Shown here piece by piece: positions 245-51,522 of a stretch of DNA of 64,000 nt (its first letter is position 1; the number at the start of each line of letters is the position of its first letter). The notes below the pieces were generated by a model. The model saw nothing but the letters and a program-made list of their open reading frames with translations, was not told the origin of the DNA and made no database searches. Source of the stretch: Callorhinchus milii (lineage: Eukaryota); the NCBI RefSeq assembly GCF_018977255.1, contig NW_024704743.1, positions 10,604,001-10,668,000 of the forward strand. Reading direction: 5' to 3'. Made by a program: the position numbers and the translations under genes.

Positions 245-2902
245 GTCTATCCAAGGCACTGAACAGACAGAGTTACGTACTTGAGCTGGGGGTCGGGGTC
301 AGGGAGGGTGGAGGGCTGGGGGAAAGCAGGGAGATCGAAAGCACTGTTGAAGAGGAGGTCTTAAGTGGGTCTTGAAGGTGGCAAGGGAGGGGGCAAGGTG
401 GAGGGATTGTGGGATGGAGTTCCAGATGGTGGGGAAGGCCTGCCTGCCGATAGTGGGATGAGCGAGGCGGGGGACGTGAAGCAGGTCAGAGCCCGCTGAG
501 CAGAGGGAGCGAGCAGGATGGTAGGGGGATAGAGGTCGCAGTGGTAGGGGGGGCAAGACCATGGAGGGCTTTTAAGCTGAGGACCAGGATCTTGAACTGT
601 ATCCTCTGTGTGATGGGAAGCCAGTGGAGTTGGGCAAGGATGGGGGTGATTGGGTCATGGAGCCTGGTGCGGGAGAGCACACAGGATACACAGTTCTGGA
701 TGATCTGCAGCCTGTGGAGGGAGGAATTGGGGAGGCTGACAAGCAATGAGCATGCTTAGTCGAGATATGGACAGAATGTCATTTGTCACCTTGGCCAGGG
801 GCTGTTTCCATGCTGTGAGCAGCACGGAAACCCGATTGGATGAGTTTGTAAAGCGAGTGTCAGGAGAAGAAGGAGAAAAGCTGGGAAGTATCAACTCTTT
901 CAAGTACCTTGGAAAGAAACGGGAAGGTTGGAGATGCAATTGTAGTTTGTGAGCAGGGTTGGGTCCAGAGAAGGTTTTTTGGGATAGGGGTGATGACAAC
1001 TGTTTTTAGATGGGTGGGAACAGTGCCAGTTGACAGGAAGAGGTTGACGAGGTCTGAGAGTAAAGGGGCAAGAAGGTGGAGCTAGGAGGTAAGGAGAAGG
1101 GTAGGGATGGGGTCAAGGGAGCAGATGGTGGGCTTCATATGGGTTATAGTGGTGGTGAGAGAGGAGGGGGAGACAAGTTTGAAGGTGTGGAGGGAAGGAT
1201 GGGTAGTGCCTGGAGTGTGAGGGAGAGATGGGAGGGAGTGGTAGTTGGGAGGGTAGAGGCGGCTGAACTGATCCCCTCGATTTTGGTCTCAAGAAACTCC
1301 AGCATCTCCTCGCAGTTGGAGTAAGTTCTGTGAGTACTAGTGTGAGTTGTATGAGGTGGTTCAGGAGGTGAGGGGGGCAAGGGCATCGAGAATGGTGGAG
1401 AGGGACTTGTGAAGGAGAGTGACCGAGGAGGATAAGTCCGTGAGGGATTTAGGCCAGAGGGGGAGAAGTTCAGATGACTCCAGAGCAGTGGAGAGGGAGT
1501 GCATGGAGATTCTTTTCCAGGGGTGGTAGGAGATGGAGGTGGGTTGGGTGGCAGTGGGGAGAGTGATTGAGGAGTTAAGGGAGATGAAATGGTGATCTGA
1601 GATGGCTTTATTGATGATTGTGAGGTCAGAGACACTGAGGCTTCAGGTAATCACTAGGTCGAGAGGGTTGCCATGAACATGGATAGCAGAGTGGATTTGG
1701 AGGGAGAGGTTATGAGAGGAGATGAGAGAGGAGAAGTCAGCTGAGATAGAGCAAGAGGGGGTGAAGTGCAGGTTGAAGTCGCTTAAGATGAGGAGGCATT
1801 CAAAACAGATGGGAAGCTAGAAGGGCGGAGATGTCAGATATGAAGGTGGTGGAGGGTTTGGGAGAATTTTGAGTTAGCGATTGGAGAAATGGTCGAGGTT
1901 AAGGTGCTTGAAAGAGTGGAATGAGCTGGAGGAGTAGGGGGATAGAGTATGTGAGGACCTGGAGATGAGGGCCACAACACCGCCACGGCAGTTAGGATGT
2001 GGGATATGTCGAAGGTATAGCCAGGTGGTGTGGCCTCAGTCAGATGGAAGGTATTGCCTGGGGTGATCCAAGTTTCAGTGAGAACCAGGATATCAATGTT
2101 TTCATCAACGAAGCTGTTGTTGATGGCATGGACCTCGTTGGAATGGGAGCAGACATTTTGTAGGCTAATGCAGAGGGAACAGTTAGCAGTGGAATGTGTG
2201 AAATGCGAAGGGGTGGTGGGAGGATTGACAGGGAGGGTGGAAATATGGATGAGGGAGGAGAGGTTTGCTCCTGGGATCTGGATCCAGCCGGGCTTGCGGT
2301 GATAGTGGGGAATGGGGCAGTTAATATGGCTGCTGCTGGACAGTCAACACTGAGTGCCATGGTGAGCCCGACAGAGGATATCCAGGTTAGAGCAGAGGGA
2401 GGCTATGGGATGGTCAAGTTGGGATAGGAGGCAAGGAGGCCGGAGTGAGAGGAGGACAAAGCAGGAGAGTTGCAGGGTGGGGAGCATTTTTGGGAAAAAG
2501 CAGCTCGGGTCGGGGGCGACAACCAAGATGTGCACGCCAAGCATTGAGGCAGGCGGTTAGTGGGGCATGGTCAGCACACAGGCATGGAGACTGCAGGGGC
2601 AAGAGGTGGTGCAGTGGGGGAGAGGGGGCAGGGCACTCGTGTTATCCACCAGGTTGCCCAACCTGGAAGATAACTCCAAACAACCTGCAGGGAAAAGACA
2701 GAGGAAGGAAGGAGATTCCAAGACTATACTAGACCTGGTTCCAGGGATTCAAACCTGGCGGGCACAAGTGACATCATTCGGGGATTTAGTCGGGAGATTG
2801 TGAAATGGCAGCTCCGCCTGAATCCAGTAATGGCCGCCATCCCCGAAACCTCGGCTCTGCCTATCACTACCTACCGGTCCCAATCACCGAGACCTCGGCC
2901 CT
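245..2902 (-). mobile_element. L2 LINE, older subfamily, near full-length but decayed, RT core internally deleted
   Basis: Minus-strand pieces align with the young L2 ORF2: endonuclease region (~1650-2170), CEEMLEFLETKIEGI (~1270-1320), KVTNDIL joined at ~750 to the LPNSSLHRLQIIQN…LHWLPI C-terminus. A GC-rich 5' UTR extends to ~2900. Confidence 0.85.
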
Positions 2903-3014
2903 TTACAGTTTGGACATGACATATCATGCGACTGCCAGGATGGTGAAAGGGAAACTTGATGGATCTTGATCTTCTTTTGTCTAGCAAATTCTTATGTTCT
3001 TATGAACCAAACTA

Positions 3015-3077
3015 GAGCTTGAACCCTCAATTTTCTGACTCAGATGTAAGAGTGGGACTAATTGAGCCAAGCTGACT
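3015..3077 (-). mobile_element. tRNA-derived SINE family B, head fragment
   Basis: Reverse complement GTCAGCTTGGCTCAATTAG…CTGAGTCAGAAAATTGAGGGTTCAAG matches the family-B head at 57185 and 14090. Confidence 0.6.
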
Positions 3078-3261
3078 GTGAATTGTTGTGACTGTAATTG
3101 TAGGCAAACACAACAGTTAATTTTGTATACGCCAATGGCTTACAAATAAAGTGAATTAACATTTTTTTTAATGTGCCATATAAATTGTGGCATAGAAGGA
3201 GGCCTTTGGGCTTATCAAATTTTGCTGGTGTAAATTCATCCACTGGAGCCATTTTAATCCC

Positions 3262-3304
3262 GACATGAAAGGCGATATAAAATGTAATCTTGTTGTTATT
3301 GCTG
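3262..3304 (+). mobile_element. Extremely 5'-truncated L2 insertion (43 bp tail only) with 8-bp TSD
   Basis: GACATGAAAGGCGATATAAAATGTAATCTTGTTGTT is flanked by TTAATCCC at 3254-3261 and 3305-3312. Confidence 0.75.
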
Positions 3305-4089
3305 TTAATCCCAATTCTCTGCTCCTCCACCGTATGTTTTCAAATTGTTTCTCTTCAAATCTAATTTCCTTTCCAAGTGCTGTTATGGTTTCAGCATCAA
3401 TAGCCAACTTGTTTCAAAACATCGCAGGGGTAAATTTCTAGTTAAATATTTGTAGAGTTAATGCCAGACTTTGGAGATTATTGGGGCATGCTTATACCTT
3501 TGTCTATTTGTTTAATGCCTTCAATTAGTATGGTTTGTAGTGGTAAAGAAATGGTAGGGTAAGATACTTTTATATAATACAATTTACATTTATATAGCAC
3601 CTTTCACATTATGAGGATGTCACAATGTGCTTAAGTAATTGCCACTATTTCCTCTTCATGTGCCAATATCTTTTGTATTTCTGTAATTTTGACATAAATA
3701 GGTTTTATTTCAGTTTTCTTTCCCTTCTTAAGAGTTGTATACATTAAATGATATTTATGCATGCATGTTCTACTTATCTGCTAAATGTTTTNCCTTTCTG
3801 TTGTTTTCACTAATGGAAATGGCTCAATTAGTTATTCGGAGTTGCTGTACTCTGGCCTGATGTGCAGTAAAGCTTTATTGACTCCATGAAAGTATACGTA
3901 ATAAGCTTGGTGTTCTGCCTGCTTTCGAAGTGACTGTGGGATTTTGGCAGAAAATGGGAAGGGGTTTGGTCGTGCAAGATGCAGCATAATGAGCTGTAGC
4001 TGGAGAGCATGAATTCTGAATGAAACATCAAATGCCAATAAGGTAATGAAATGCTGGTTTCCAAGAGACAAGGGGAGGAAATTATAATA

Positions 4090-4250
4090 AAAAAATCTGT
4101 ATATTTAATAAAGCACCTTATCATGTCATTGAGATGTCTCAAAGCACTTCACAAAGATGCACTGCAAAGTGTAGTGAATGTATATTTTGTGGATGAATGC
4201 AGCAGCCAATTTGGCTGACAAACAGCCATGGATTGAGTGACCAAAATTTA
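4090..4250 (-). mobile_element. SINE Deu-like body plus L2-type tail (decayed)
   Basis: GCACCTTATCATGTC…TCAAAGCACTTCACA…GCAGCCAATT matches the 3' half of the other SINE copies. Confidence 0.6.
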
Positions 4251-5319
4251 CTATGGTTCTATGGTGCTAGGAAGATTTGTGTCTCCATGTAATATAAAGG
4301 GGGAGATGACCATTGGTGCAGTTGAAGTAAAAGTTGTTAAATTAGGATTTAAACAAAGCAAAGTAGAAGGATTAGGCCAGGGAATTCTAGAGAATTCCGT
4401 AATACGTTTGGTGTTCTGTCCACAATGACTGAAGGTTTAGACACTGATGATGATGTGGAGGGAGCTGCAGGTGCATAGGAGCCCTGTGTTACCCAAGCAG
4501 CGAGGATGGACAGAGGAATGGGGTATGAGCAGATCAGAAAGCTAGGAAGGCACTATTGTACCATTATACAAGTGACATTGTGAAATTCAGCACAAAAGAG
4601 TAGACATTGCGAAAACCGATCTATGATTGACTTCATGTGTGTGATACTCATCTGGACAATTTTACTTGTGGATTCAGGCCTGTCAGTAGGTAGAGTTATT
4701 TGGAATTTTTTTCAAGCAACTTTATTCCTGTAAATTGTTCTTGAATCCATATTAAAAAATATAGTTTTATTTTAATTGTTATAGTTCAGTAAAATTGTGT
4801 GTTTATCAAGTTTAGCAACGCATTTCCATTCTTGGCATCTAGTGTTCAGTTAAAGCACTTACAGGTGTAGTCCAGGATACATGCAGAGGAAAGCTCACTC
4901 CACTTTTTGCCAACATGTGGCTTGATCCCAACATCACAAATTAATCCTTTATTTCACTGGTAAAATATTTCCATTTACTACAAACCTGCACAATCTCGTT
5001 GAGTGGGATTAGCAGTTTGTATCATGTACAATTTTGAGTATTGTCCCATCAATCAAGGCCAGATTTGAAACAGTGAAGGGGATTATGGTGTGATAGAATG
5101 CTCCACACAGACACCAAAGTGCTCTTACACAGAAACTTAATTCAGATTGAAGTTGAATTAGCTACTGATATTAATCTTACCAGTACAAAGTTCAAATATT
5201 AAGGCCTCAACTTAATTGCGTACATAATAATAGTAACAATAATAATAATAATCCTTCTATTTGATATAGATCCTTTCATATTGGAAGGATGTGTCAAAGC
5301 ACTTCACAGAATTTCAGGT

Positions 5320-6015
5320 GCAGGAACCTAGGTGTCTTGTTTGACCCTCAACTGTCTTTTCTTCCCCACATCTCTGCCTTCCATCACCTCCATAACATCG
5401 CCCGACTCCGCCACTACCTCACCTCTCAGGCCGCTGAAACTCTTATTCATGCCTTCATCACCTCCAAGCTCGACTATGCAAACACCCTGCTTGTCGACCT
5501 TCCCAACTCCTCTCTTCACAGGCTGCAGATAATCCAGAACTCTGCAGCTCATGTCCTCTCCCGCACCAAACTCCGTGACCCCATCTCCCCCACTCTAGCT
5601 TGACTCCATTGGCTCCCTTCAGAGGATCCAGTTCAAGATCCTGGTCCTCACCTACAAAGTCCTCTATGGCCTCTCCCCACCTTACCTCTGTGATCTCCTG
5701 ACCTCCTACCAACCTGCCCATTCCCTCCGCTCAGCCGGCTCCGGTCTGCTCCAAGTCCCCCGACCCACCTGCCTCACCATTGGCAGGAGAGCCTTCAGGC
5801 ACTCTGCCCCCAACCTCTGGAATTCCATCTCCCGGTCACTCTGCCTTGCCCCCTCTTTAGCCTCCTTCAAGCCCCGCCTCAAGACCCTCCTTTTCGACCA
5901 TCGGCCACCCCCATTCCCCTCCCTTCCCTTCTCCCCCCCTGACCTCAGCTCGGGTCTGAAATGCTGTACACTGTCCGTGAAAGGCGCTATACAAATGTAA
6001 TCTTGTTGTTGTTGT
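5320..6015 (+). mobile_element. L2 LINE 3' fragment
   Basis: [13 protein letters not shown]…LHRLQIIQNSAA ORF2 C-terminus; ends GTGAAAGGCGCTATACAAATGTAATC(TTG)n. Confidence 0.9.
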
Positions 6016-6303
6016 AAGACTGCCACAGAGGGCTGGTTTGATTCCGACATTCCATTGCCAAACATGTCACCTTGGAACCGGCTCAGCTCCAAAGAGGCCC
6101 CACTTACCTTCCCCGCAAGGAGGATTGTCACTAGTTGGTCATGCTGCACTGAAGTAAGTGCTGACTGTTCAGGCAGAAAATATGTTGTTACTTCTGTTGT
6201 GAATGGTTTCCTGCTCCATAAAAAGCACATTCTCAGTATATATGTATCCAGAGGACATGTGGTGCTGATGGACTTCAGGTTGGGACTTTTTTGGAATCCA
6301 AAG

Positions 6304-6671
6304 TAATAATAATAATAATCCTTGCATTTGATATAGCGCTTTTCACGTCAAGAGGACGTCTCAAAGCGCTTCACAGAAAACACTGTAAAGTGAATTGACT
6401 GTATATTTGTGGGCGAACGCGGCAGCCAATTGCGCACAGCAGTGTCCCACAAACAATCGTGGATTGTGTGAACACATTATTGTTGTTTTTTTTAAGGATT
6501 ATTATCCCCGGAAAAGTGATCTGCCATTCGACTAGAAACCGGATTCTTACTGCTAGGTAAACAGAGGCGTGTGTAGTAAGGAAACTTGTCCAACATTTCG
6601 CCCTGCCAGAAATAGCACCCAGGTCTCTCGCTTGCAAGACAAGTGCTTTAATCACTGAGCCACAGGACTCC
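6304..6671 (-). mobile_element. tRNA-derived SINE family A, full length (long variant)
   Basis: Head GGAGTCCTGTGGCTCAGTG with anticodon loop CTTGCAA (Ala-TGC-like), CORE-like segment, Deu-like segment, L2-type stem-loop tail and (ATT)n. Confidence 0.88.
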
Positions 6672-7450
6672 TAAATACTATTTTAATTCAGTTAGAAATG
6701 CGTATGCAAACGTTAGCCATAATGGAATGATTTGTAGACACTATGAGCCTAATTAAAGTCAGCTAAATTGTAGAGTTTATGTCTAAGCACGACAAATGTT
6801 ACTTTTTAGTTGGTATAACTTTAGATAAAATGTAATGGAAAATGACAGTATGTGTGCCTTGAAGAGTTAAATTGATTCAGAAGTATTTATACATGTTTAT
6901 TACAGCTGCAGCTCTCTTCTAATTGTTGATGTAATGGTCCTATATTGTTTATAATTTGATTCAGCTCATGGGCACTGCATTCAAGGACGGTTCCAGTTTG
7001 TTTAAACCAGCCTGAAAACAACTATCAGGTGGATGAGGATGTGCAGATTTGCACGGACCATCTTGAATTTTTTTAACTAAAGGACAATTATAGACTAGGT
7101 ATAGCTAACCTATACTATGTTCAGTTCAAGTCAATGAGAGCATGACTACATTAGCCACTCCTCCAGGAAGGCAGAACTTCTATCGGAGGTTCTGTGACTC
7201 GAGCCACTCACACTCGACCTTGACTGTTCCAAGGTTCCAGTGATTCAGCAACATCGGAAAAAGTAAAAAAAAGAGAACAAGAAAAGAAGAACTGCAGAGA
7301 TATGAGAATACAGCTGCAGCACAACTGCTAGAGATTCAAATTTGGTTCTTTGAATCGATACCAGCTCAACAGAGCGTTAACACTGCTGCTGGTTGTGCCT
7401 CCCAGGCTCAATACAGTCATTATTTCTGCTACTTGCTGTACTACTGGCTA

Positions 7451-9209
7451 CAACAACAACAACAAGATTCCATTTATTGAGCGCCTTTCATGTCGGCAGG
7501 ACGTCCCAAGGCGCTGTACAGTTGGGTCAGGACCCGAGCAGGGGGGAAATGGTCAGGGTGAGGGGAGGGAAGGGAGGGAGCGAGGAGGGGGTAGAGAGTC
7601 GAGAGGGGAGCTGAAGGCTCGGTCAAAGTGAAAGGTCTTGAGACCGGCCTTGAAGAAGGAAAGGGAGGAGGCGGCGAAGGCACTGGGGGATAGAGTTCCA
7701 GAGCCAAGGGGCTGAGAGGCTGAAGGCCTGGCCACCGATGGTAGGGCGGTTGGGGCGGGGGATGTGGAGCAGACCGGAGCCAGAGGAACGGAGGGTACGG
7801 GCGGGTAGGTACTGGGATAGTAGGTCGGAGAGTTAGGAGGGAGCAAGGCCGTGAATGGCCTGGTAGGTGAGGGTGAGGATCTTGAATTCGATCCTCTGGG
7901 GGATGGGGAGCCAGTGGAGGTGAGCGAGGGTGGGAGTGATGTGGTCGCGAAGCCTGGTGCGGGACAGTACATGAGCTGCAGAGTTCTGAATGACCTGCAG
8001 CTTGTGGAGGGAGGTGCCGGGAAGGCCGGCGAGGAGAGAGTTCCCATAGTCCAGCCTTGAGGTGATAAAGGCGTGGACCAGAGTTTCAGCAGCGTGAGGG
8101 GTGAGGTAGTGCCGTAGTCTGGCGACATTCCGGAGGTGATGGAAGGCGGTGCCAGTTGTGGAGCGGATATAGGGGAGAAAGGACAGCTCAGGGTCGAACA
8201 GAACCCCGAGGTTCCTGACTGGCTTTGAGAGGTGGAGAGTGCAGCCTTGGATGCTGATGCTGTCAGCGCCTGAGGTGCGGAGGCGCTGACGCGAGCCAAT
8301 CAGGAGGGCCTCAGTTTTGCGTACGTTGAGCTGGAGAAAGTTATCTCTCGTCCATGACTCGATGTCGGACAGGCAGACTGTCAGGACATCGGTGGTCGTG
8401 GAGTTGAGGGTAGAGGAGGAAAGGTAGAGTTGGGTGTCATCCGCATACATGTGGAAGTTAACCCCATGTCTGCGAATGATGTCACCAAGGGGGAGCATAT
8501 AGAGGGTGAAGAGGAGGGGACTGAGGACAGAGCCTTGAGGGACACCGCACGAGACAGTGCGGGGGCTGGAGGAAAAGCCATTTGAGGAGACAAAGTGAAG
8601 ACGGTGGGAGAGGTACGACCTAAACCACTCAAGGACAGGGCCTTGAAGGTTGAGGTGGGAGGACAAGCTATGGAGGAGGATAGCGTGGTCGACCGTATCG
8701 AATGCTGCCGATAGGTCGAGGAGGACGAGGAGGCAGAGGGAGCCCTGGTTACAGATGGTCAGGATGTCATTGGTGACCTTGACCAGGGCAGTTTCTGTGC
8801 TATAGGCAGCACGGAAACCCGATTGAAGGGGTTCGAATAGTGAATGGTTGGAGAGGAAAGAACGCAGCTGGGAGGCGACAACTCGTTCCAGGACCTTGGA
8901 CAGGAAGGGGAGGTTGGAGATGGGCCGGTAGCTTGATAGCTGCGATGCAACAAGGGAGGGTTTTTTTAAGGTGTGAGTGATGGTGGCAGTTTTTAAGGAA
9001 ATGGGAAAAGAGCCAGAGGAGAGGGACAGGTTGACGATGTCTGTGATATGTGGGGCAAGGAGGTGGAGCTGGGAGATAAGGAATGGAGTGGGGATGGGGT
9101 CAAGGGAGCAGGTGGTAGGTTTCAGGGAGAGGATGAGTTTGGTGACAGAGGACAGGAAACGGGTACGAAGGTGTGTAGGGGAGGATGGGTAGGTGTCGGA
9201 GTGTGGGAG
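7451..9209 (-). mobile_element. Young L2 LINE, 3' part of the host copy interrupted by the 9210-13014 insertion
   Basis: RT motifs [16 protein letters not shown]; (CAA)n tail at 7451. Corresponds to 11201-13014 of the intact copy. Outer TSD TGGCTA at 7445-7450 and 13646-13651. Confidence 0.95.
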
Positions 9210-9383
9210 TCGGGGAGCGGCGGCAGGACAGCGCGGGGAGGAGCCTGGGCCTACTGACCCAGGTACTTAAACTCGACGCCGGAGCGAGTGCAGCCAGTCG
9301 GGGAGCGGCAGCAGGACAGCGCGGGGAGGAGCCTGGGCCTACTGACCCAGGTACTTAAACTCGACGCCGGAGCGAGTGCAGCT
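9208..9383 (+). repeat. Two tandem 88-bp monomers at the L2 5' end
   Basis: 9208-9295 and 9296-9383 differ at 2 positions. Each carries a CCTGGG-N8-CCCAGG inverted repeat followed by TACTTAAA. Confidence 0.95.
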
Positions 9384-12300
9384 AGGGGGAGGGGACGGAG
9401 CGGGGAACTGCGACGTCATAGATTAGTTTTCAGGTGAGTGCGCGCGCACAAAAAAAACAAACAAAAAAAAACCCTCTGCGCCCCCCCCCCCCCCCAGGGC
9501 TCACATCAGAGCCCACTATGGTCCTGTTGGGTTCGATGCCCCAATCTGCGGGATAATGCCATCCACCTGACCGCTCGCTCCCGGTCCCCGCGTGCGCACT
9601 ATGGCTGCCGCTTTGACCCGAGCCCCCTCACCCCCTCCCTCCCGCCCCCCTCCTCTCTCCCCCCAAACCCTCCCCCCTCTCCATCTCTCCCGCTCTCTCC
9701 TCCTCTCTCTCCGTCCCTCTCGTCTTCTATCCCCACTTGACCCTCCCACAACCTCCCTCTGTTCCAGTCTGGGAATCCTCCGCCGGGCTCACCGTGGCAC
9801 TCGGCGTTGGCTGTCCAGCAGCAGCCACACCGACTGCCCCATTCCCCACCACACTCGCCAGCCACCCCGGACACAGACCCGGGGAGTCAACCTCTCCTCC
9901 CTCATCCCCATCTCCCCCACCCCTGCCTCACAACCTGGACCCCCCTCCCCTCCCACACACCCTTCTGTCAACCGCTCCCTCCACATCGGACTGCAAAATG
10001 TCCGCTCCCTCTGCAACAAGGCCCTGGTCATCAACGATCTCATCCTTGATGAGAACGTTGATATCATGGCCTTGACAGAAACGTGGCTCACCCCAGGCGA
10101 CACCTTCCCCCTCACGGAGGCCACGCCACCCGGCTACACCTCCCACCACATCCCCCGCCCCAACCGCCGTGGCGGTGGTGTTGCCCTTATCTCAAGGACA
10201 CCACTTGCCCTATCCCCCTACTCCTCTGGCTCTTTCCCCTCCTTCGAGCACCTCACCCTCTCCCACCCCTCATTCCTCTCCCTTAAAATCCTCCTCCTCT
10301 ACCGGCCCCCTAAAACCTCTCCCACCTTCATCTCTGACATTTCAACACTCCTCACATCTCTTTGCCTCTCCTCTGATCGCCTCATCATCCTGGGCGACTT
10401 TAACCTACACTTCACCCCCTCCTGCTCCATCTCCACAGACTTCTCTTCCCTGCTCTCCTCACTCAACCTTTCCCTACACATAAACTCCCCCACTCACAGT
10501 CACGGCCACCCACTCGATTTGGTGATCACCCGGGGCCTCAGTGTCTCGGATGTCACTATTACCGACAAGGCCATCTCCGACCACTACTTCATCTCCTTCA
10601 CCACCTCCACCCCCCTCCCCACCTCCACCAGACCCACCACCATCTTCTACCGCCCTTGGAAGAAGTTACCCCCACAATCCCTAACCGATGCCTTGGAGTC
10701 CTCTGAACTCCTCTCCCTCTGGCCTTCAACCCTCACCGACCCCTCTTCTCCTCTCTCCCTCCTCCACAATATCCTCTCCTCCACACTCGATACTCTTGCC
10801 CCCATCACTTCCCGCACTGTCTCCTACTCCCGCTCCTCCCCCTGGTACACCACCCACCTCCGCTCACTGAAATGCCAGGTGCGGGCTGCTGAACGCACCT
10901 TTGTCAAATCTGGCCTAACGGTCCACCGACAAATCTGGCTGGACCTCCTCAAAATTTACCGCTCCACTCTAGCCTCGGCCAAGTCGTCCTTCTACTCCAG
11001 GATAATCCTGGAGGCGAAGAACAACCCCAGGCTACTGTTTTCCACCACATCCCGACTCCTCCGTCCCCCCGCCACCCCGCGCAGGTCATCTCCTCCAACC
11101 TTCACTGCGAGGAGATGCTGGATTTCCTTGAATCCAAGATCAAGGGAATCCGCTCCGCGGTCACTTCCCCTCCAACTTCCACCCACCACCCACCCCTTCC
11201 CTCCCACACTCCGACTCCTACCCATCCTCCCCTACACACCTTCGTACCCGTTTCCCCACCCTCTGTCACTGAACTCATCCTATCCCTAAAACCAACCACC
11301 TGCTCCCTTGACCCCATCCCCACTCCACTCCTTATCTCCCAGCTCCATTTTCTTGCCCCACACATCACTGACATCATAAACCTGTCCCTCTCCTCTGGCT
11401 CTGTCCCCATTCCATTAAAAACTGCCATCATCACGCCCACCCTGAAAAAACCCTCCCTTGATGCGTCGCAGCTATCAAGCTACCGGCCCATCTCCAACCT
11501 CCCCTTTCTCTCCAAGGTCTTGGAAAGAGTTGTCGCCTCCCAACTGCGCTCTTTCCTCTCCACCCATTCTCTTTTTGAACCCCTTCAGTCAGGTTTCCGT
11601 GCTGCTCATAGCACAGAAACTGCCCTGGTCAAGGTCACCAATGATATCCTGACTATCTGTGACCAGGGCTCCCTCTGTCTCCTCGTCCTCCTCGACCTAT
11701 CGGCAGCATTCGATACGGTCGACCACGCTATCCTACTCCACCGCTTGTCCTCCCACCTCAACCTTCAAGGCACTGTCCTTGAATGGTTTAGCTCTTACCT
11801 TTCCCACCGTCTTCACTTCGTCTCAACGAATGGCTTCTCCTCCACCCCCCGTACTGTCTCATGTGGTGTCCCTCAGGGCTCTGTCCTCGGTCCCCTCCTC
11901 TTCACCCTCTATATGCTCCCCCTCGGTGACATCATCCGCAAACATGGGGTTAACTTCCACATGTATGCGGATGACACCCAACTCTACCTTTCCTCCTCTA
12001 CTCTCAACTCCACGACCACCGATGTCCTGACAGCCTGCCTGTCCGACATCGAGTCCTGGACGAGAGACAACTTTCTTCAGCTCAACGTGCGAAAAACCGA
12101 GGCCCTCCTGATTGGCTCACGTCAGCGCCTCCGCACCTCAGGCGCTGACACCATCAGCATCCAAGGCTGCACTCTCCACCTCTCAAAGCCAGTCAGGAAC
12201 CTCGGCGTTTTGTTCGACCCTGAGCTGTCCTTTCTCCCTCACATCCGCACCACAACTGGCACCGCCTTCCATCACCTCCGGAATATCGCCAGATTACGGC

Positions 12301-13014
12301 ACTACCTCACCCCTCACGCTGCTGAAACCCTGGTTCACGCCTTTGTCACCTCAAGGCTGGACTATGGGAACTCTCTCCTCGCCGGCCTTCCCGCCACCTC
12401 CCTCCACAAGCTGCAGGTCATTCAGAACTCTGCAGCTCGTGTACTGTCCCGCACCAGGCTTCGGGACCACATCACTCCTACCCTCGCTCGCCTCCACTGG
12501 CTCCCCATCCCCCAGAGGATTGATTTCAAGATCCTCATCCTCACCTACAAGGCCATTCACGGCCTTGCTCCCTCCTACCTCTCCAACCTACTATCCCCTA
12601 CCTACCTGCCCGTACCCTCCGTTCCTCTGGCTCCGGTCTGCTCCACGTCCCCCGCCCCAACCGCCCTACTATCGGTGGTCGGGCCTTCAGCCTCTCAGCC
12701 CCGAGGCTCTGGAACTCCATCCCCCAGTGCCTTCGCCTTGCTTCCTCCCTTTCCTCCTTCAAGGCCGGTCTCAAAACCTTTCTCTTTGACCGAGCCTTCA
12801 GCTCCCCTCTCGACTCTCTTCCTCCTCCTCGCTCCCTCCCTTCCCTCCCTCACCCTGACCATTTCCCCCTCCTCTCTCCCTCCCTTCCCTCCCCTCACCC
12901 TGACCATTTCCCCCCTGCTCGGGTCATGACCCAACTGTGCAGCGCCTTGGGACGTCCTCCTGACGTGAAAGGCGCTCTATAAATGGAATCTTGTTGTTGT
13001 GTTGTTGTTGTTGT
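9210..13014 (+). mobile_element. Apparently full-length, single-ORF L2-clade LINE (about 3.8 kb)
   Basis: TSD TGGGAG at 9204-9209 and 13015-13020; ~390-bp CpG-rich 5' UTR; APE endonuclease plus RT ORF; 3' stem-loop AGCGCCTT…AAGGCGCT; (TTG)n tail. Confidence 0.95.
9601..12858 (+). CDS. L2 ORF2: APE endonuclease + reverse transcriptase, frameshifted at ~11070 and ~12597
   Basis: ATG at 9601; endonuclease motifs LQNVRSL, LTETWL, GGGVAL, ILGDFN, GHPLDLV, SDHY; RT motifs [46 protein letters not shown]-terminal LHWLPI. No internal stop codons, only single-base deficits in C-runs. The end is placed at the TGA used by sister copies. Confidence 0.85.
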
Positions 13015-13649
13015 TGGGAGGGAAGGGGTGGGTGGTGGGTGGATGTTGGAGCAGAAGTGACCGCGGAGCGAATTCCCTTGATCTTGGATTCAAGGAAATC
13101 CAGCATCTCCTCACAGTGAAGGTTGGAGGAGATGACCTGCGCGGGGGGGGGGGCGCGGAGGAGTTGGGATGTGGTAGAGAACAGTAGCCTGGGGTTGTCC
13201 TTCGCCTCCAGGATTATCCTGGAGTAGAAGGACGATTTGGCCGAGGCTAGAGTGGAGCGGTAGATTTTGAGGAGGTCCAGCTAGATTTGTCGGTGGACCG
13301 TTAGGCCAGATTTGACCCAGGTGCGTTCAGTGGCCCGCACCTGGCTCTTCAGTGAGCGGAGGTGGGTGGTGAACCAGGGGGAGGAGCGAGAGTAGGAGAC
13401 AGTACGGGAGGTGATAGGGGCAAGAGTGTCAAGTGTGGAGGAGAGGGTGTTGTGGAGGAGGGTGAGAGCAGAAGAGGGGTCGGTGAGGGTTGAAGGCCAG
13501 AGGGAGAGGAGTTCAGAGGACTCCAAGGCAGCAGTTAGGGATTGAGGGGGTAACTTCTTCCAGGGGCGGTAGAAAATGGTGGTGGGTCTGGTGGAGGTGG
13601 GGAGGGGAGTGGAGGTGGTGAAGGAGATGAAGTAGTGGTCGGAGATGGC
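13015..13649 (-). mobile_element. Young L2 LINE, 5' part of the interrupted host copy
   Basis: [12 protein letters not shown]…[12 protein letters not shown], equivalent to ~10568-11206 of the intact copy. Rejoins 7451-9209 exactly across the TGGGAG TSD. Confidence 0.93.
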
Positions 13650-14089
13650 TATATCTTCAAATGAGCCAAGCAAGAGATGTTTGTCAACTACTTATGAACT
13701 TTGATAATGACTTTAATATTGCCATTACAGTAACATTGCTCTACGTGAGAATAACAGAAAATGTTGTTTGGCGTAAGCCTGGCTATCGTAATTATCTTAT
13801 TGCAACTTTTCTGCCTTATTAAGTAAACAAGCTTTAAAACATAAAACTAGTGACTTTGGTTCCCCTGTTCAAGGTTCCTAATATAAAACTGAGGCTAACA
13901 GAATAAGCTGGTCTTTTCTGGAAACACTTTGTCCCAGGCTGCAGCAGAGTGGTTAAGTTCACCATTGACTGTACATTCGAACCCAACAGCATCACATCCA
14001 AAATAGAAGAATTATAAGGACTAAAATGTAATCTGGGCTGGAAAGTCTGTCCCTGTTTGATGGTTCTCAACTTCAGCTATTTGTCTGGA

Positions 14090-14470
14090 GTGTCAGCAAT
14101 AACTCAGTTGGGTAGCACTGTCACCTCTGAGTCGGTGAAAGTTGTGGGTTCAATCCCTACGTCGGGACTTTGAACCCATATAGTCTATGCTGACACAAAA
14201 CTAACAGTTAGAAGTGCCGTTCTTCAGATGAGACATTAAACTCATCTGCTTGTTCAGATGGATGTCAAAGATTCCAAGGCACTATCAAAAAATCTCATAG
14301 ATTAAATTAGTCTTTTAATTTAAGTCTGCTTGTGTGACATTGCTGTGCAGAGATGGGCTGCATTGTCTGGTTACAAAATATAGTCACTAAACTTTGCAGT
14401 ATATCCTGTGACATGCTTTGAGATGTCCTCCTGCCATGAAAGGTGGGCTACAAAATGCAAGGATTATTAT
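14090..14470 (+). mobile_element. tRNA-derived Deu-domain SINE family B (SacSINE1-like)
   Basis: GTGTCAGC…CTCAGTTGGGTAGCACT…CTGAGTC…GTTGTGGGTTCAATCCC head, CAGATGAGACATTAAAC, Deu-like core, tail AAATGCAAGG(ATT)n. Confidence 0.8.
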
Positions 14471-15037
14471 TATACTCATCATCACATTCAGTCCCTTCTC
14501 TTTTAGAAACACATCATCTGGGTGTTTTTATTTAAAAAAATTACACTCCATGTCTTTCCAATTAATTCCACAAATCTGTTCAGCTCTACTTATTTCCAAC
14601 TTTGTACATTTTGCAATATGTAATCATAATCGCCAGTAATAATCATCACAGTATTGATAATTGCAGTCAAAATCAGTCGATACCTAAAGAACAGTTTAAT
14701 TTTCTCCTTGATTTAAGCACAATGGTTGGACCTGAGGCCAACCTGAAAACTACCAATAAAGTTGTCAGCCCACATAATGTGGGCCATTAATCTGATGGTT
14801 CATAGTATATGGTTTTAATTGAAGAAAATAATCTGGTTAAAGACTGTATCCCACAAACCAGTGTTTAGGCACATTATCCCACAGGGTGGTGACTGCAGTG
14901 TTGCCTTTAGGCCAATTTTGGGCCTAGTCACTGTGCCAAAATAGTGTGGTTACACACCATGACCAGAGTTAGTTATTGTTTGACACTGATTGCCATTTTC
15001 CTCCGGGTGATAATTACTGGTGGTGACATTTAGCACA

Positions 15038-17420
15038 TCATAGAATCATAGCATTATACAGCGCAGAAGGCCAGCTTTTTGAAAAGAGGTATCCAATTCA
15101 ATCCCACTCCCCCGCTCTCTCCCCATAGTCCTGCAAACTTGTCCTCCCCAAATAATTATCTACTTTTCCCTTAAAAGTTGTTATCGAATCAGCTTCCACC
15201 ACCCCTTCAGGCAATGCAATCTGGATCTGAATAGCCCTCTGTGTGAAAAAAATTTTCCTCTATTTCTTTTAATAACTATTTTAAATCGGTGTCCTTGGGT
15301 TATCGACCCACCCGCTAGTGGAAATAGTTTTTCCTTATTCACCCTATCGAATCCCCTCATAATTTTGAAAACTTCTATAAAGTCTCCTCTTAACCTTCTC
15401 TGCTCCAAAGAGAATAATCCTCGCTTCTCTAGTCTCTCCTGATAACTGAAGTGCCTCATTCCTGGTACCATCCTGGTAAATCTCCTTTGCACCCTCTCCA
15501 ATGCCTTGACATCCTTTCTAAAGTGTAGTGCCCAGAACTGAACACAGTACTCCAGCTGAGGCCTAACCAGTGTTTCATAAAGGTTCATCATAACTTCCTG
15601 ACTTTTGTATTCTATGCCCCTATTTAAAAAACCTAGTGTCCCGTATGCTTTTTTAATAGCTTTATCTGCCTGTCCTGCCACCTTCAAAGATTTACTTATA
15701 TAAACCCCAGGTCTCTCTGTGCCGTCACCCCTTTTAAGATTGTACCATCAGCGTATATTGCCTCTCCTCATTCTTCCTCCCAAAATGCATCACTTTGCAT
15801 TTCTCCGCAATAAAATTCATCTGCCACCTGTCTGCCCATTTTACCAGTCTGTCTATCTCCCATTGCAGTCTGCTACTATCCTCCTCACTATTTATTACTT
15901 TTCCTAGCTTAGTATCATCTGCAAACTTCTATAAAGTCTCCCCTTAACCTTCTCCCTGTACCCAAGTTCAGGTAATTTATATAGATCAAAAACAGCAGTG
16001 GTTCCAATACTGACCCCTAGGAACACCACTGCATGCTTCCCTCCAGTCAGAAAAACCAAAACAACTATTCACCACCACTCTCTGCTTTCTGTCTCCCAGC
16101 CAGTTCTGTATCCATGCTGCCACTGTCCCTTTTATACCGTGGGCTTCTATTTTGCTTACAAGTCTCTTATGTGGTACTTTATCAAACACCTTTTGAAAAT
16201 CCATATAAACTACATCAACTGCACAACCTTCATACACCCTTTCCGTTACTTCATCAAAAAACTCTGTTAGGTTTGTTAGACATGATTTGCCTTTAACAAA
16301 TCTGTATTGGCTGTCCAGATATTTTTGTAAGTGAAAATGTATTTTGTCCCATTTATAGTCTCTAGAAGTTTCCCAACCACTGACATTAGGCTCCTATCAT
16401 TAACTACTGCTCCATCTCCAACCTCCCTTTCCTCTCCAACATCCTGGAATGAGTCGTTGCTTCCCAGCTTCACTCCTCCCTCTCCTGCCACTGCTTTCAT
16501 GGACTCGTACAACCGGGTTTCCTCCCACAGAGCAGAAACAGCCCTGGTCAAAATGACAAATAATATTCTGTCCTTCTGTGACCAGGACTCCCTTTGCCTC
16601 CTCCATCAAATCCCTCCTTCTCTGGACTATTCCTTATTGCATTGCTATTCATCTCTCCCAGCTCTCTATGTAATTTTTTTTCCCTCTCAGATGCTACATG
16701 TTGATTCCCTTTCCCCCATCAAAATTAGTTTAAACGCTTCCCCGCAGCACTAGTTAACATCCCTGCGAGGACATTGGTCCCAGCCTTGTTCAGATGTAAC
16801 CCATCCACCTTGTACAGGTCCCACCTGCCCCAGAACTGGTCCCAATGATCCAGGATCCTGAAGCCTTCCTTTCTGTACCTTTCCTCGAACCCTGCATTCA
16901 TGTGTTTCATCCTGCTGTTTTGATACTCACTTGTGCAAGGCACTGGGAGTAATCCAGAGATCCCCACCTTTGAGGTCCTATTATTTAGATTTTTCCCAGC
17001 TTCTGATACTCTCCCTGTAGGATCTCAGCCCTTTTTTCCCTACATTGTGGATCTCAACATGGACCACGACTTCTAGATGTTCCCCTTCCCCCTATTGAAC
17101 GTTTTGCACCTGTTCAATGATGTCTTTAACCTTGGCACCAGAGAGGCAACGTACCATGCGAGAGTCACGTCTTTGGTTGCAGAAACGCCTGTCTACTCCT
17201 TTCACGATTGGGTCCCCAATGTCCACCGCATTGACATTCTTCCCTGTGTGCCCCTGTGTATCCATTTGCTTTTGACTTCCCTCCCGAGAGGTGTTATCAT
17301 CCTCACCAGTATTCAGTACAGAGAGCTCGATCAGCCGGAGGCACTTCCTACACACATGTTTGTCCAGGGCACACAAAGCATCCTGGAGTTCCCACATGGC
17401 ACACATTGTTGCAATTTTCA
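15038..17420 (-). mobile_element. CR1 LINE, decayed, with large internal deletions
   Basis: RT/C-terminal motifs MDFQKVFDKVPH, LVRPQLEYCVQFW, LEQRRLRGD; ORF1 esterase pieces IGDPIVKG, LSGAKVKD, DGLHLN; zinc-finger-like CAMW…CRKC; TGATTCTATGA tail at ~15040. Confidence 0.9.
16395..16605 (+). mobile_element. L2 internal RT fragment lying at the CR1 deletion junction
   Basis: CCATCTCCAACCTCCCTTTCCTCTCCAA…GAAACAGCCCTGGTCAAAATGACAAATAATATT matches 11480-11680. Confidence 0.75.
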
Positions 17421-22189: not shown

Positions 22190-22838
22190 CAACAACAACA
22201 AAAAGAAGATTACATTTGTATAGCTCCTTTCACGTCGGGAGGACGTCCCAAGGTCCTGGACAGTGTACAGCATTTCAGACCCGAGCTGGGGTCAGTGGGG
22301 GAGAAGGGAGGGGAGGGGAAGGGGGCTGGTTGATGGCATAGTCGAAGAGGAAGGTCTTGAGGAGGGTCTTGAAGGAGGCTAAGGAGGGGGCGAGGCAGAG
22401 TGATTGAGGATGGAATTCCAGAGGGTGGGGGCAGTGTGGCTGAAGGCTCTCCCGCCAATAGTGGGGCGTTTGGGTTGGGGGACATGGAGCAGACCGGAAC
22501 CGGCTGTGTGGAGGGAGCGAGCGGGTTGTTAGGGGGTTAGGAGGTTGCGGAGGTAGGGTGGGGTGAGGCCAAGGAGGGCTTTGTAGGAGAGGACCAGGAT
22601 CTTGAACTGGATTCTCTGAAGAATAGGGAGCCAAGGGAGTCGGGGGAGATCGGATCACTGAGTTTGGTGCGGGAGAGGACACGGGCTGCAGAGTTCTGGA
22701 TTATCTGCAGCCTGTGGAGGGAGGAGTTGGGAAGGCCGACAAGCAGGGCATTTGCATAGTTGAGCCTGGAGGTGATGAAGGCATGAACAAGAGTTTCAGC
22801 GGCCTGAGGGTTGAGGTAGTGGCGGAATTGGGCGATGC
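22190..22838 (-). mobile_element. L2 LINE 3' fragment
   Basis: Reverse complement of the ORF2 C-terminus and stem-loop tail. Confidence 0.88.
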
Positions 22839-23261: not shown

Positions 23262-24256
23262 ATAATAATAGTAGTAATAATCTTTGCATTTGATATAATA
23301 ATAATAAAAATAATAATAATAATCATCCTTGCATTTGATATAGCGCTTTTCACGTCTTCTAGACATCTCAAAGCACTTCACAGAATATATTGTAAAGTGA
23401 ATTGACTGTATATTTGTGGGCGAAACGCAGCAGCCAGTTGCACACAGCAGTGCCCCACAAACAGTCGTGGATTGAGTGACCAAATTGTTTTGCTTTTTTC
23501 TTGAGGGATCATTATCAGGCGTGTAGAGTAAGGAAATTTGCACAAGGTTTCACCATGCTGGGAATCGAACCCAGGTCTCTTGCTTGCAAGACTCGTCATT
23601 ACCTCACCCTTCAGGCCACTGAAACTCTTGTTTATGCCTTCATCACCTCCAGGCTCAACTATGCAAAAGCCCTGCTTGTTGGCCTTCCCAACTGCTCCCT
23701 CCACAGGTTGCAGATAATCCAGAACTCTGCAGCCCGTGTCCTCTCCCGCACCAAACTCCGTGACCCCATCTCCCCCATTCTCGCCTGACTCCACTGGCTC
23801 CCTATCCTTCAGAGGATCCAGTTCAAGATCCTGGTCCTCACCTATAAAGCCCTCCATGGCCTCACCTCTTCCTACCTCTGCGACCTCCTAACCCCCTACC
23901 AACCTGCCCGTTCCCACCGCTCAGCCGGCTCCGGCCTGCTCCACGTCCCTCGACCCACCATTGGTGGGAGAGCCTTCAGCCACTCTGCCCCCAATCTCTG
24001 GAATTCCATGCCCCAATCACTCCACCTCACCCCCTCCTTAGCCTCCTTCAAGTCCCACCTCAAGACCCTCCTCTTCGACCATGCCATCGGCTCCCCTCCT
24101 TCCGCTCCTCTCCCTTACCCCCCCAACCCCAGCTCGGATCTGAAACGCTGTACTCTGTCCAGCGCCTTGGGACATCCTCCCGACGTGAAAGGCGCTATAC
24201 AAATGTAATCTTGTTGTTGTTGTTGTAGTGCTCTAATCGCTGAGCTACAGGACTCC
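23262..24256 (-). mobile_element. SINE family A (short variant), split by an L2 inserted in its tRNA head; tail duplicated
   Basis: Body and T-loop (GGGAATCGAACCC) at 23262-23592. The rest of the head, AGTGCTCTAATCGCTGAGCTACAGGACTCC, is at 24227-24256. Confidence 0.85.
23593..24226 (+). mobile_element. L2 LINE 3' fragment nested in a SINE
   Basis: RHYLT…[15 protein letters not shown]; (TTG)n tail. Confidence 0.9.
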
Positions 24257-24735: not shown

Positions 24736-25109
24736 ATTTTCTTTAGATATAATAGTTCGCCTTTGAATTCAGTGTTTCCACGAAGAAGGATACAATTCAA
24801 GAAAAGGGATTATGAGCTTGAGTTCACTCTCCATGCTGCTTGACTCCCAATACTAGCTCGGGGCTTTGAGACATCCCCCAATGTGAAAGGCGAAATGTAA
24901 ACGTAAATTGTATTACAAATTATAATGCATTGAAGGAGTGATCAAGGCACAATTGAACAGGAATAAATTGAGATCCTATACATTGTAACAAGGTTTAGAT
25001 AACAAATCATAAAAGTTGCATTTATTTAGCATCTTTCATGTGCAAATAAATGTCTTGAAGCACTTTGCAAAATATGATCGATTAGATATAAAGCAAACAT
25101 CCACTTCAA

Positions 25110-25352
25110 CGACAACAACAACAACAAGAGTCCATTTATAGAGCGCCTTTCATGTCGGGAGGATGTCCCAAAGCCCTGGACAGTTGGGTCAGGACCCGAG
25201 CAGGGGGGAAATGGTCAGGGTGAGGGGAGGGAAGGGAGGGAGCGAGGAGGGGGTAGAAAGTTGAGAGGGGAGCTGAAGGCACGGTCAAAGAGAAAGGTCT
25301 TGAGACCGGCCTTGAAGGAGGAAAGCGAGGAAGCAAGGCGAAGGCACTGGGT
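25110..25352 (-). mobile_element. Young L2 3' end
   Basis: Near-identical to 7451-7690, including the (CAA)n tail. Confidence 0.9.
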
Positions 25353-25364
25353 GATATATAACCT

Positions 25365-29990: not shown

Positions 29991-31025
29991 ATGTCTGAAA
30001 ACCTGGCAGGGCAGCTGAGACCCATTACATGCACAATGTGTGCCAAGTGGGAACTCCAGGATGGTTCATGTGTTCTGGACAAACACATGTGTAGGAAGTG
30101 CCTCTGGCTGCTTAAGTTTTAACTCAGGGTCACTGAGCTTGAGGAGAGGCTACAGTCACTACATAGGATACGAGAGGCTGAAGAATTTATGGATCGAACT
30201 GTTCAGGAGGTGGTCACCCCACAGCCACAGAGAGTTCAGGAGGTGGTCATCCCACAGCCACAGAGAGTTCAGGAGGTGGTCATCCCACAGCCACAGAGAG
30301 TTCAGGAGGTGGTCAACCTAGCTACACATAGGGCTCAGAAGAAGGGTGAGTGGGTGACCATCCAACATGGAGCAAAAAAAGAACAGGCAGCACAGAAATC
30401 CCCTAAGAGTGTAGCACTCACAAACCGGTTCTCGGTACTGGATACCGGTGAGGACGCCTCTGGCGAGAAGAGTCAAAAGGTAATGGATGTTCAGGGAGAT
30501 AAGGAGAAAAATCCCAATGCTGTTGTCATTGGGGATACAACAGTAAAAGGGATAGACAGGCCTTTATGCCATAAAAGACGGGACTTGCGCCTGGTATGCT
30601 TCCTCCCTGGGGCTAGGGCGCGTGACGTCACGGAACGGGTGCAAAATATACTACAAGGGGAAGGAGAAAATCCGGAAGTTGTCATCCATGTCGGGATCCA
30701 TGATGTAGGTGATAAAAGGGCTGAGACCCAACAGGGAGAATATCGGAAGCTTGGGAAGAAGCTAAAGAGCAGGATCTCAATGGTGGTGATCTCAGGATTA
30801 CTCCCAATGCCTTATGCAAGTGAATACCAAACTGGGAGGATCCAACACACGAATGCCTGACTGGAGAAATGGAGCATGAAGGATGTCTTCAGGTTTCTAA
30901 ACCACTGGGATCACTTCTGAGGCATATGGGACCTATACACAACGGATGGGTTACACCTGAGCAGGGCTGGGACCAACGTCATTGCAACAAAGATAACAAA
31001 TACTGTGGGGAGGCATTTAACCTGA
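29991..31025 (+). pseudogene. CR1 ORF1 (zinc-finger/coiled-coil plus SGNH esterase-like domain), with in-frame stops
   Basis: One frame reads CTMC…CRKC, LRVTELEERLQSL, VVIGDT, LPGARA, VIHVGIHD, DGLHL. Stops at 30120, 30858 and ~30918. Confidence 0.85.
30201..30315 (+). repeat. 33-bp in-frame tandem repeat (3.5 units) inside CR1 ORF1
   Basis: GTTCAGGAGGTGGTCA(C/T)CCCACAGCCACAGAGA x3 plus a partial unit, encoding VQEVV(T/I)PQPQR. Confidence 0.95.
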
Positions 31026-31179
31026 TTTCGAGGGGGGATGGAGATCAGAATGTAGCATCAGGGAGGGGAAACAAGTTACATAATGGACGAGGAGAGACAA
31101 ATAGAAATGAAACAAGGAATAGTCCAGCAAAAAGTGGAAAGAGATGTGGGAGAAATATAGAGCGGATCAAGCTGGTATT

Positions 31180-33900: not shown

Positions 33901-34099
33901 AGTTGGATTACTCTTTTAGTAGTTGGCGCAGACACGATGGGCCGAATGGCCTCTTTCTCTGCTGTATGATTCTATGAAAAGGGTTATTAGATAAAGCACC
34001 TCATTAGTGAAGTGAACTCATCTCCTGTTGCTTAAGCACTCAATACCCAACCATGTAGAAACTCCTGAAAGAAATTGCATTGGAATGGTTTTTACGATT

Positions 34100-51270: not shown

Positions 51271-51522
51271 GCTGTCACTCTGAGTTAGTTCTAATTTATG
51301 GATGTGTTTTGCTAGAGATCGTGAGCTGAGGAAGGCATACAAAAGGTCACACCGGAGATTTTAAATGCACTGATCACCATTCAGAACCTTTAGCAGAACA
51401 GATTGGATCCACTGGCCATTAAAAATAACCAATTTTTCATTACATGTTTATAATGGGATTTCTCATTAGCTAAAAGATCACTATTTTTAGACATCGACCC
51501 TTGTTAGACATGGCTATACCTA

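Follow-up and report, generated by a model that had tools for sequence, protein, structure and literature searches.

Nested antisense L2 retrotransposons in Callorhinchus milii: anatomy, origin and the absence of an esterase ORF1

The window analysed here, i.e. the whole stretch of 64,000 nucleotides, contains two minus-strand pieces of an L2 element separated by a plus-strand L2, which raises the question of how such a nest arose and what its ends reveal about the complete form of the family. Very probably, the nest results from two retrotransposition events, both ordinary, of an L2 family that lacks ORF1 and is very abundant. The arrangement is real but ordinary, and L2s without ORF1 and with 5' repeats have already been published.

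Architecture of the nest

The minus-strand outer L2 (7451-9209 and 13021-13649) is interrupted by the plus-strand inner L2 (9208/9210-13014), the latter consisting of a leader, ORF2 (ATG at 9601; endonuclease and RT) and a (TTG)n tail. The features are as follows:

7445..7450, unstranded: left copy of the outer TSD, TGGCTA (letters at the junction)
7451..9209, minus: 3' half of the outer L2, with (TTG)n tail (7451-7465), 3' stem-loop and RT region (RVT_1, E 8.8e-37)
9204..9209, unstranded: left copy of the inner TSD, TGGGAG, its final AG being also the first two letters of the 88-bp unit
9601..12800, plus: inner ORF2, with N-terminal extension, APE endonuclease, RT and C-terminal HWLP region (Pfam)
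12819..12914, plus: tandem duplication of 44 bp in the 3' region of the inner element, missing in the outer copy (alignment, repeat scan)
12941..12977, plus: inner 3' stem-loop, with an 8-bp lower stem AGCGCCTT/AAGGCGCT, an internal loop and a 5-bp upper stem (folding)
12991..13014, plus: inner (TTG)n 3' tail (repeat scan)
13015..13020, unstranded: right copy of the inner TSD, TGGGAG (letters at the junction)
13021..13649, minus: outer L2, 5' half, the truncation falling at the end of the endonuclease domain, with a stop codon at 13281-13283 (ORFs, alignment)
13646..13651, unstranded: right copy of the outer TSD, TGGCTA, with 4 nt of microhomology to the element

The outer halves, 7451-9209 and 13021-13649, are adjoining parts of one 5'-truncated L2. 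Their alignments to the inner copy overlap by 6 nt (inner 11201-11206), and family contigs from two public runs (X1 and X5) pass directly from 9209 to the sequence at 13021, so that nothing separates the two halves in the family. The exact rejoining of the minus-strand pieces, proposed in the initial annotation, is thereby borne out, as are, from the junction letters and the half-to-inner alignments, its antisense nest with the positions and letters given for it; its order of insertion, the outer L2 first and the inner second, also stands. The comparison with public contigs covered 7100-10560, thus 9209/9210 but not 13014/13015, low-share runs being left out. Among the contigs listed, none spans 9209/9210 and none represents an empty allele at 7450, which carries no weight either way; the flank contigs of X15 and X16 reach just 23-24 letters into the element, under the 31-letter bar.

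Concerning the duplications, both 6-bp copies of each claimed TSD are present, but most of their letters are microhomology. In the inner TSD, TG extends the 3' tail and AG equals the opening two letters of the 5' unit, and the outer TSD shares 1 nt with the tail and 4 nt (GCCA) with the element, so that the unambiguous duplication comprises only two letters (inner) and one letter (outer).

The inner ORF2 gives Pfam matches above the cut-offs (Exo_endo_phos, E 3.4e-15; RVT_1, E 5.8e-37), and its N-terminal extension has the L..LR and LGI..R..HRG motifs common to homologs. It has two frameshifts, near 11075 and near 12597 (frames +1, +3 and +2), and is covered by the ORFs 9571-11289 and 10893-12929. 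The description of a full-length single-ORF element therefore holds for the anatomy, which is whole and has one ORF, but not for its intactness. The outer ORF2 is broken by two stops, one frameshift and the inner insertion, the 3' half carrying a stop (7833-7835) and, near 9154, a deletion of 1 nt. The uninterrupted ORF2 of a retrotransposition-competent LINE is thus found in neither copy, and neither is able to encode a working protein.

The leader and the absence of ORF1

The leader of the inner element contains the following features:

9208..9383, plus: two tandem 88-bp units, 98% alike, 69% G+C, CpG o/e 0.86 (repeat scan, 88 bp x 2.0)
9264 and 9352, plus: TATA-like TACTTAAA in the 88-bp units (motif match)
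9296, plus: Inr-like GCCA(+1)GT in the 88-bp unit, the A at 9296 (motif match)
9384..9600, plus: single-copy part of the leader, tether-like, with poly-A and poly-C runs and no ORF1 (sequence)
9431-9439, plus: donor-like CAG/GTGAGT in the leader (sequence)
9481-9497, plus: acceptor-like poly-C-AG in the leader (sequence)

According to the initial annotation, the inner TSD fixes the true 5' end and shows that no ORF1 is present. The first claim fails: the TSD of the outer copy is just as good, yet this copy is 5'-truncated, and ZfL2-1 inserts are described with TSDs of ~5 bp, accompanied by microhomology or extra letters, in full-length and truncated inserts alike (PMC4245944), so that a TSD cannot fix the 5' end of the family. 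Moreover, the inner 5' end coincides with the boundary of an 88-bp unit in a tandem array, so that the family may lack a single fixed 5' end and the unit number may vary.

The absence of ORF1 itself holds, although the TSD argument does not prove it. In all eight relatives with an esterase ORF1, its stop lies 238-322 nt before the endonuclease motif, whereas here 781 nt are without a trace of it: an HMM built from these eight relatives found nothing in 9210-9991 (best nearby chunk E 6.6), and the leader has no long ATG-opened frame. As controls, seven of the eight held-out relatives were recovered in a 782-nt stretch (the one missed, L016, has its esterase domain further upstream), and the HMM detects decayed ORF1s elsewhere in the window (E 7e-31 and 5e-14). 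No esterase match was found in 3.8 kb of L001, the nearest relative with long upstream DNA. An esterase ORF1 is thus absent from the inner element; the HMM addresses this type of ORF1, a non-esterase type upstream of the unit array being outside its reach.

It is very unlikely that the inner element, too, is 5'-truncated and that the real element is longer, with an ORF1 upstream of 9210. Against this stands not only the position of ORF1 in the relatives, just the leader occupying the corresponding span here, but also the 5' end on the first base of a unit, expected by chance in 3 of 88 phases. In addition, a 118-nt contig from X1 (9225-9342, no differences) equals 88+30 letters, in our interpretation the length of the unit closed into a loop with words of 31 letters; this would fit further units upstream instead of a gene.

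For the leader lacking an esterase ORF1, a promoter role of the 88-bp units may be proposed from their motifs. The inner 5' end is in phase with the pair of TATA-like (-32) and Inr-like (+1) sites, and the insert start is most likely the transcript start of the parent element. The shuffle value for this pair (p 0.0003) is post hoc and uses consensus sequences (TATAWAWR with 2 mismatches, BBCABW) with the unit read circularly, and the phase figure was given more weight. It is conceivable, though rather doubtful, that the units act as a hand-over promoter, in which a transcript start at the first base of unit n+1 would be directed by the TATA-like box at -32, towards the end of unit n, and by the initiator at the junction. 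Each round of copying would then lose at least one unit, so that the family would have to regrow the array in order to survive—by unequal exchange or template switching—and the unit number would count the remaining generations. If true, this would represent an upstream-type core promoter inside a LINE, unlike the usual internal promoters, and would explain in a simple and testable manner how vertebrate L2s without ORF1 restore their 5' ends, the literature found describing the structure without a test. A promoter-activity test of L2 5' units was not found in the open-access literature, subscription papers (such as the original ZfL2 descriptions) and Repbase/Dfam being beyond its scope.

Several further observations concern the units and the leader. 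An exact 27-nt pattern from the unit matched no stretch in metagenome contigs, and tandem repeats with a period of 25 or more upstream of the endonuclease were seen in only 4 of the 79 related loci scored, a count of little weight because such arrays collapse in short-read contigs. In X1, the depths over the unit and over the leader downstream of it (32.4 vs 13.2) give a ratio too noisy for a unit count, and the depth dip at 9420-9535 does not point to splicing, repeats at 9433-9505 having been skipped in the depth count. A structured-RNA role of the unit was likewise discarded, as it folds no better than shuffles (z 0.07).

Subfamilies and origin of the nest

The rejoined outer copy aligns to the inner one with 2229 matches, 157 mismatches and 51 gap columns, and the two are sister subfamilies, 93.4% identical, with similar decay. 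The outer copy, taken originally for an older member of the same family, was indeed inserted first, but it belongs to the sister subfamily and is about equally decayed, each copy showing about 1-2% decay since insertion. At eight listed sites, the public contigs split 26-60% between two letters, the inner copy having the other letter each time, and a third copy carries the outer letter at 5 of the 6 split sites covered (both from the best 40 of 225 rows). The inner-specific changes fall mostly at third codon positions (33/44) and are mostly synonymous (32/44), the synonymous share being 7/17 for the outer-specific and 8/22 for the third-copy changes; over 1015 nt, 10 private non-synonymous changes were counted in the outer and 12 in the inner copy. 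The family is extremely abundant, the summed contig depth—not a copy number—being ~1.4 million at the 3' end, 1,000-57,000 in the leader and endonuclease, and 33-82 in the flank.

In the most probable history, target-primed reverse transcription would have placed a ~2.4 kb 5'-truncated copy of one subfamily on the minus strand, the stagger measuring 6 bp and the 5' end being joined through microhomology. By the same route, a complete 3.8 kb transcript of the sister subfamily would later have been inserted antisense into that copy, the nesting being probably due to chance in a genome crowded with the family. As in ZfL2-2 and UnaL2, the 3' stem-loop is most likely recognised by the single protein of the family (endonuclease and RT). 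The locus itself matters little, inverted nested LINE copies being expected at such family abundance; it is useful as a clean record of the family anatomy and of two co-existing subfamilies.

Both inverted repeats of the initial annotation are present, the start of one, 10568, being corrected to 10570: 7451-9209/11201-13014 and 10570-11206/13015-13649, with duplex energies of about -3600 and -1340 kcal/mol. The alignment of 7450-9209 to 11201-13005 is 90.6% identical, and that of 13015-13649 to 10570-11206 is 93.7%. It should be noted that the repeats are interleaved in the order A' < B < A < B', A directly adjoining B', so that full pairing of both would be impossible. Formation of dsRNA and recombination at the nest are possible, and a hand-over promoter, if real, could drive a read-through RNA folding into a 637-bp hairpin against its own family.

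That the nest has a function or owes its existence to homology—whether as a source of dsRNA silencing the family, by likeness-guided insertion or as a recombination product—nevertheless appears highly improbable. The arms are able to pair strongly, in a transcript that starts in the inner leader and runs past the tail 10570-11206 would pair with 13015-13649, and neither AATAAA nor ATTAAA occurs on the plus strand of 12700-14200; the crossing repeats, however, compete for pairing. None of the 135 non-repeat ORFs matches Pfam, so that no host gene is evident, albeit short exons would escape. The window has 12 inverted pairs that reach 300 nt and 80% identity; 10 are other than these two, among them one whose spacer is 770 nt. 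Since no conversion tract was found, gene conversion between the arms was discarded, and an antisense insertion with ordinary microhomology of 1-4 nt is unexpected under guidance by homology. Very unlikely, too, is an assembly or scaffolding artefact from a collapsed high-copy repeat, to which the extreme abundance and the lack of a bridging contig for the inner junctions among those listed might point, since both junctions bear the marks of insertion (the 3' tail and the unit start on opposite sides, a duplication of 2-6 nt, an intact target) and each copy retains the letters of its subfamily along its whole length, identity being 90-97% in all 200-nt blocks and the longest identical run 61 nt.

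Relation to known L2 elements

The two insertions belong to an L2-type LINE of single-ORF anatomy, as originally annotated: ORF2 has an APE endonuclease followed by RT, as in the L2 clade (Pfam), and the element combines the lack of ORF1 before ORF2 with 5' repeat units, as in ORF1(-) L2s of the ZfL2-2/UnaL2 type. A 3' stem-loop with a short tandem tail, typical of L2, is present, the fold clearly beating shuffles in the inner copy only (12925-13014, z -2.27, 8/200 shuffles as good; z -0.65 and -0.94 in two other copies), and the 8-bp lower stem is found in all three copies folded. The 6-bp duplications with 2- and 4-nt 5' microhomology match the L2 TSD pattern described in PMC4245944. In the RT tree, made by a quick method from taxa without named L2 or CR1 references, the element groups with medaka, clownfish and mormyrid proteins (SH-aLRT 95) inside a 97-supported fish group with esterase ORF1; the RT identity to the best loci is 52-55%.

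The single-ORF nature of UnaL2 and ZfL2-2, stated in the initial annotation, agrees with their descriptions (PMC1636434, PMC4176376). Both ZfL2-2 (CR1-2_DR) and UnaL2 share with the inner element one ORF (endonuclease and RT), a 3' stem-loop split by an internal loop and a short tandem tail, and ZfL2-2 also has repeat units in the 5' UTR (PMC4176376). Compared by description, the inner tail is (TTG)n vs UGUAA and the loop CCUCC/CUGCC vs GGAUA, and the inner copy is 3.8 kb and broken, whereas ZfL2-2 measures about 4.2 kb (PMC4176376).

Chondrichthyan L2s without ORF1 are described in PMC13343379, some ORF1(-) elements bearing 1-5 repeated 5' subunits, and the available text of that source contains no promoter analysis of them. 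The canonical ORF1(-) L2s of Chondrichthyes clade A likewise group with esterase-ORF1 fish L2s and have a 5' array of species-specific subunits, the unit being 88 bp here and 100-500 bp as stated there (PMC13343379). The family of the nest may be among the consensus sequences of that paper. Mouse and rat LINE-1 monomer promoters resemble the leader in having tandem CpG-rich units and a single-copy tether to the ORF (PMC5381506), although they belong to another clade, have ORF1 and are built from monomers of about 200 and 650 bp; a further difference is that in the inner L2 the next unit begins ~32 nt after the TATA-like site.

Nesting of the two L2 copies

The nest is genuine and ordinary, and both of its L2 copies are dead members of the known ORF1-less type; the anatomy described in the initial annotation is correct, its argument from the target-site duplications (TSDs) wrong. 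The window is repeat-dense, with a paralogue within it for 55% of its length, and its self-comparison revealed two inverted matches, 7450-9209 versus 11201-13005 (90.6%) and 10570-11206 versus 13015-13649 (93.7%). The outer, minus-strand element is bounded by TGGCTA (7445-7450 and 13646-13651) and the inner, plus-strand one by TGGGAG (9204-9209 and 13015-13020). Once the inner element is excised together with one TGGGAG, the two outer pieces can be aligned to the inner copy with the joint unbroken—93.4% over 2386 aligned letters—and, in two public runs, L2 family contigs pass directly from 9209 to the sequence at 13021, so the outer element is a single 2.4-kb 5'-truncated copy split by a 3.8-kb antisense one. 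The proposed antisense nesting in a rejoinable L2 was thus confirmed. It should be pointed out that both duplications are largely microhomology with the element ends, leaving one unambiguous letter for the outer and two for the inner; the same junction pattern is described for ZfL2-1 inserts, having ~5-bp TSDs and joined via microhomology or extra letters (PMC4245944).

Although flank contigs from the runs X15 and X16 reach only 23-24 letters into the outer tail, none of the listed contigs covers the 9209/9210 junction and the right inner junction lies outside the stretch compared, the junction anatomy and the subfamily letters, consistent within each copy, make a misassembly unlikely.

Coding capacity and the question of ORF1

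The inner copy comprises the following features:

from 9208, plus strand: two 88-bp units, 98% alike (repeat analysis)
after the units, plus strand: single-copy leader of 217 nt
9601, plus strand: start ATG of ORF2
inner ORF2, plus strand: N-terminal extension, its L..LR and LGI..R..HRG motifs aligning with the starts of fish homologues
inner ORF2, plus strand: APE endonuclease, then RT (domain matches)
3' end of the element, plus strand: stem-loop, then (TTG)n tail

Of 7999 candidates scored, 145 matched this ORF2, the best of them fish EN-RT proteins of ~1000-1100 aa, with at most 42% identity over the N-terminal half. Its description as a full-length single-ORF L2 holds for the extent and the one ORF, not for the frame, which is broken near 11075 and near 12597, so that the copy cannot encode the protein in full. 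In the outer copy, stop codons lie at 13281 and 7833, and one nucleotide is deleted near 9154. AATAAA directly precedes the tail in the outer and third (51520-52909, minus strand) copies, with TATAAA there in the inner one (12970-12990 (+) versus 7470-7485 (-)). Many related fish L2 ORF2 proteins (P0002, P0004, P0009, P0010, P0014 and P0018 in alignment A1, also metagenome locus L001 at 3447-3550) possess, before a conserved Y....L..L motif, a hydrophobic signal-peptide-like N-terminus that the inner element lacks; it could be annotation read-through or a genuine N-terminal feature.

Concerning ORF1, the esterase type occurs in 12 of 80 related metagenome loci, and in the eight from which the model was built, 238-322 nt separate its stop from the downstream endonuclease motif. 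No esterase ORF1 match was found in the 781 nt upstream of that motif in the inner element, the search recovering 7/8 held-out controls and also decayed ORF1s of other LINEs in the window. The claimed absence of ORF1 is thus borne out by this search, not by the TSD from which it had been argued. A quick RT tree had 73 rows: the two copies, 19 proteins and those 52 of the 83 loci or window regions for which 250 or more residues could be aligned. In it, the neighbours of the element are medaka, clownfish and mormyrid proteins and L001, where no esterase ORF1 was found in 3.8 kb upstream and the leader is of similar length to that of the inner element. ZfL2-2 likewise has a single ORF and 5' repeat units (PMC4176376). 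More distant, mutually inverted LINE copies at about 15000-17400 and 30400-35200, probably CR1, show 26% RT identity and decayed esterase-type ORF1s. In two distant relatives, frames lying 5' of the endonuclease match the OTU protease family (L029, 297-1199, E 0.0012; L059, 2561-3025, E 2.6e-05).

The 88-bp units and the 5' end

The TSD had been taken to fix the true 5' end; since the outer copy carries one despite its 5' truncation, a TSD delimits the individual insert and not the family. The inner element starts with the first base of an 88-bp unit—the A at 9208, equivalent to 9296, or two letters further. The TATA and Inr consensus sequences are TATAWAWR and BBCABW, respectively. The sole AT-rich word of the unit, TACTTAAA (6/8 to TATAWAWR), begins 32 nt upstream of the A at 9296 in GCCAGT, the Inr-like word opening the next unit, and this relation of TATA-like word, Inr-like word and 5' end holds for 3 of the 88 phases. 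The leader is repeated in the genome, the summed contig depth, not a copy number, being 1,000-16,000 over 9304-9767 versus 33-82 in the flank. A 118-nt contig from the run X1 (88+30 letters) matches the unit without differences, as would fit a closed loop of tandem units. Based on these observations, 9208-9210 is most likely a natural start phase, and the unit number in other copies can differ from two. The one point of some interest is the phased unit as a putative hand-over promoter, in which unit n would start transcription at the first base of unit n+1; this would be a property of the L2 family, not of the nest, and a literature search on promoter activity of L2 5' units found no test of it.

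Donor-like CAG/GTGAGT and acceptor-like poly-C-AG sites, together spanning 9431-9497 (+), flank a possible 64-nt leader intron. An older, ~73%-identical relative of the same family (about 250-2915, minus strand) reaches beyond the ORF start into ~400 nt of leader that is richer in GC, and carries an internal deletion around 1316-1364. A pyrimidine-CAG site lies in this relative at about 2698 (-), with a weak donor-like word at 2875, and no esterase ORF1 was found in it.

Relative age and inverted repeats

The host, described as an older copy of the same family, does belong to that family and was inserted first, but it represents a different subfamily with similar decay. Over 1015 nt shared with the third copy, the private changes number 44 in the inner (32 synonymous, 33 third-position), 17 in the outer (7 synonymous) and 22 in the third copy (8 synonymous). 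Being mostly synonymous or third-position, the inner excess reflects divergence of the source lineage under selection rather than decay. The non-synonymous private changes are nearly equal (12, 10 and 14, respectively), so the host is older solely by prior arrival. Public contigs are divided between two letters at eight of the listed sites, and at every one the inner copy carries the other letter (of the 40 contig-difference rows shown, 26 were mapped, those inside the outer copy, one per place). The third and fourth (25107-25356, minus strand) copies are 5'-truncated members of the family, a clean TSD being seen at neither; the third carries the subfamily letters of the outer one.

Both long inverted repeats expected from the nesting are present, with computed pairing of about -3600 and -1340 kcal/mol and spacers of 1991 and 1808 nt. 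Because the two repeats cross and one arm ends where the partner arm of the other begins, full simultaneous pairing appears excluded. The arm-to-arm identity is even (longest perfect run 61 nt). No poly-A hexamer was found on the plus strand within 12700-14200, and a transcript reading from the inner leader past the tail would form a 637-bp hairpin. None of the 135 scanned non-repeat ORFs of the window (137 listed) matched Pfam. Ten further inverted pairs in the window reach 300 nt and 80% or more. At 22192-22824 / 23594-24226, two LINE 3' ends form another inverted pair at short distance (85.7%, 645 nt, 770-nt spacer).
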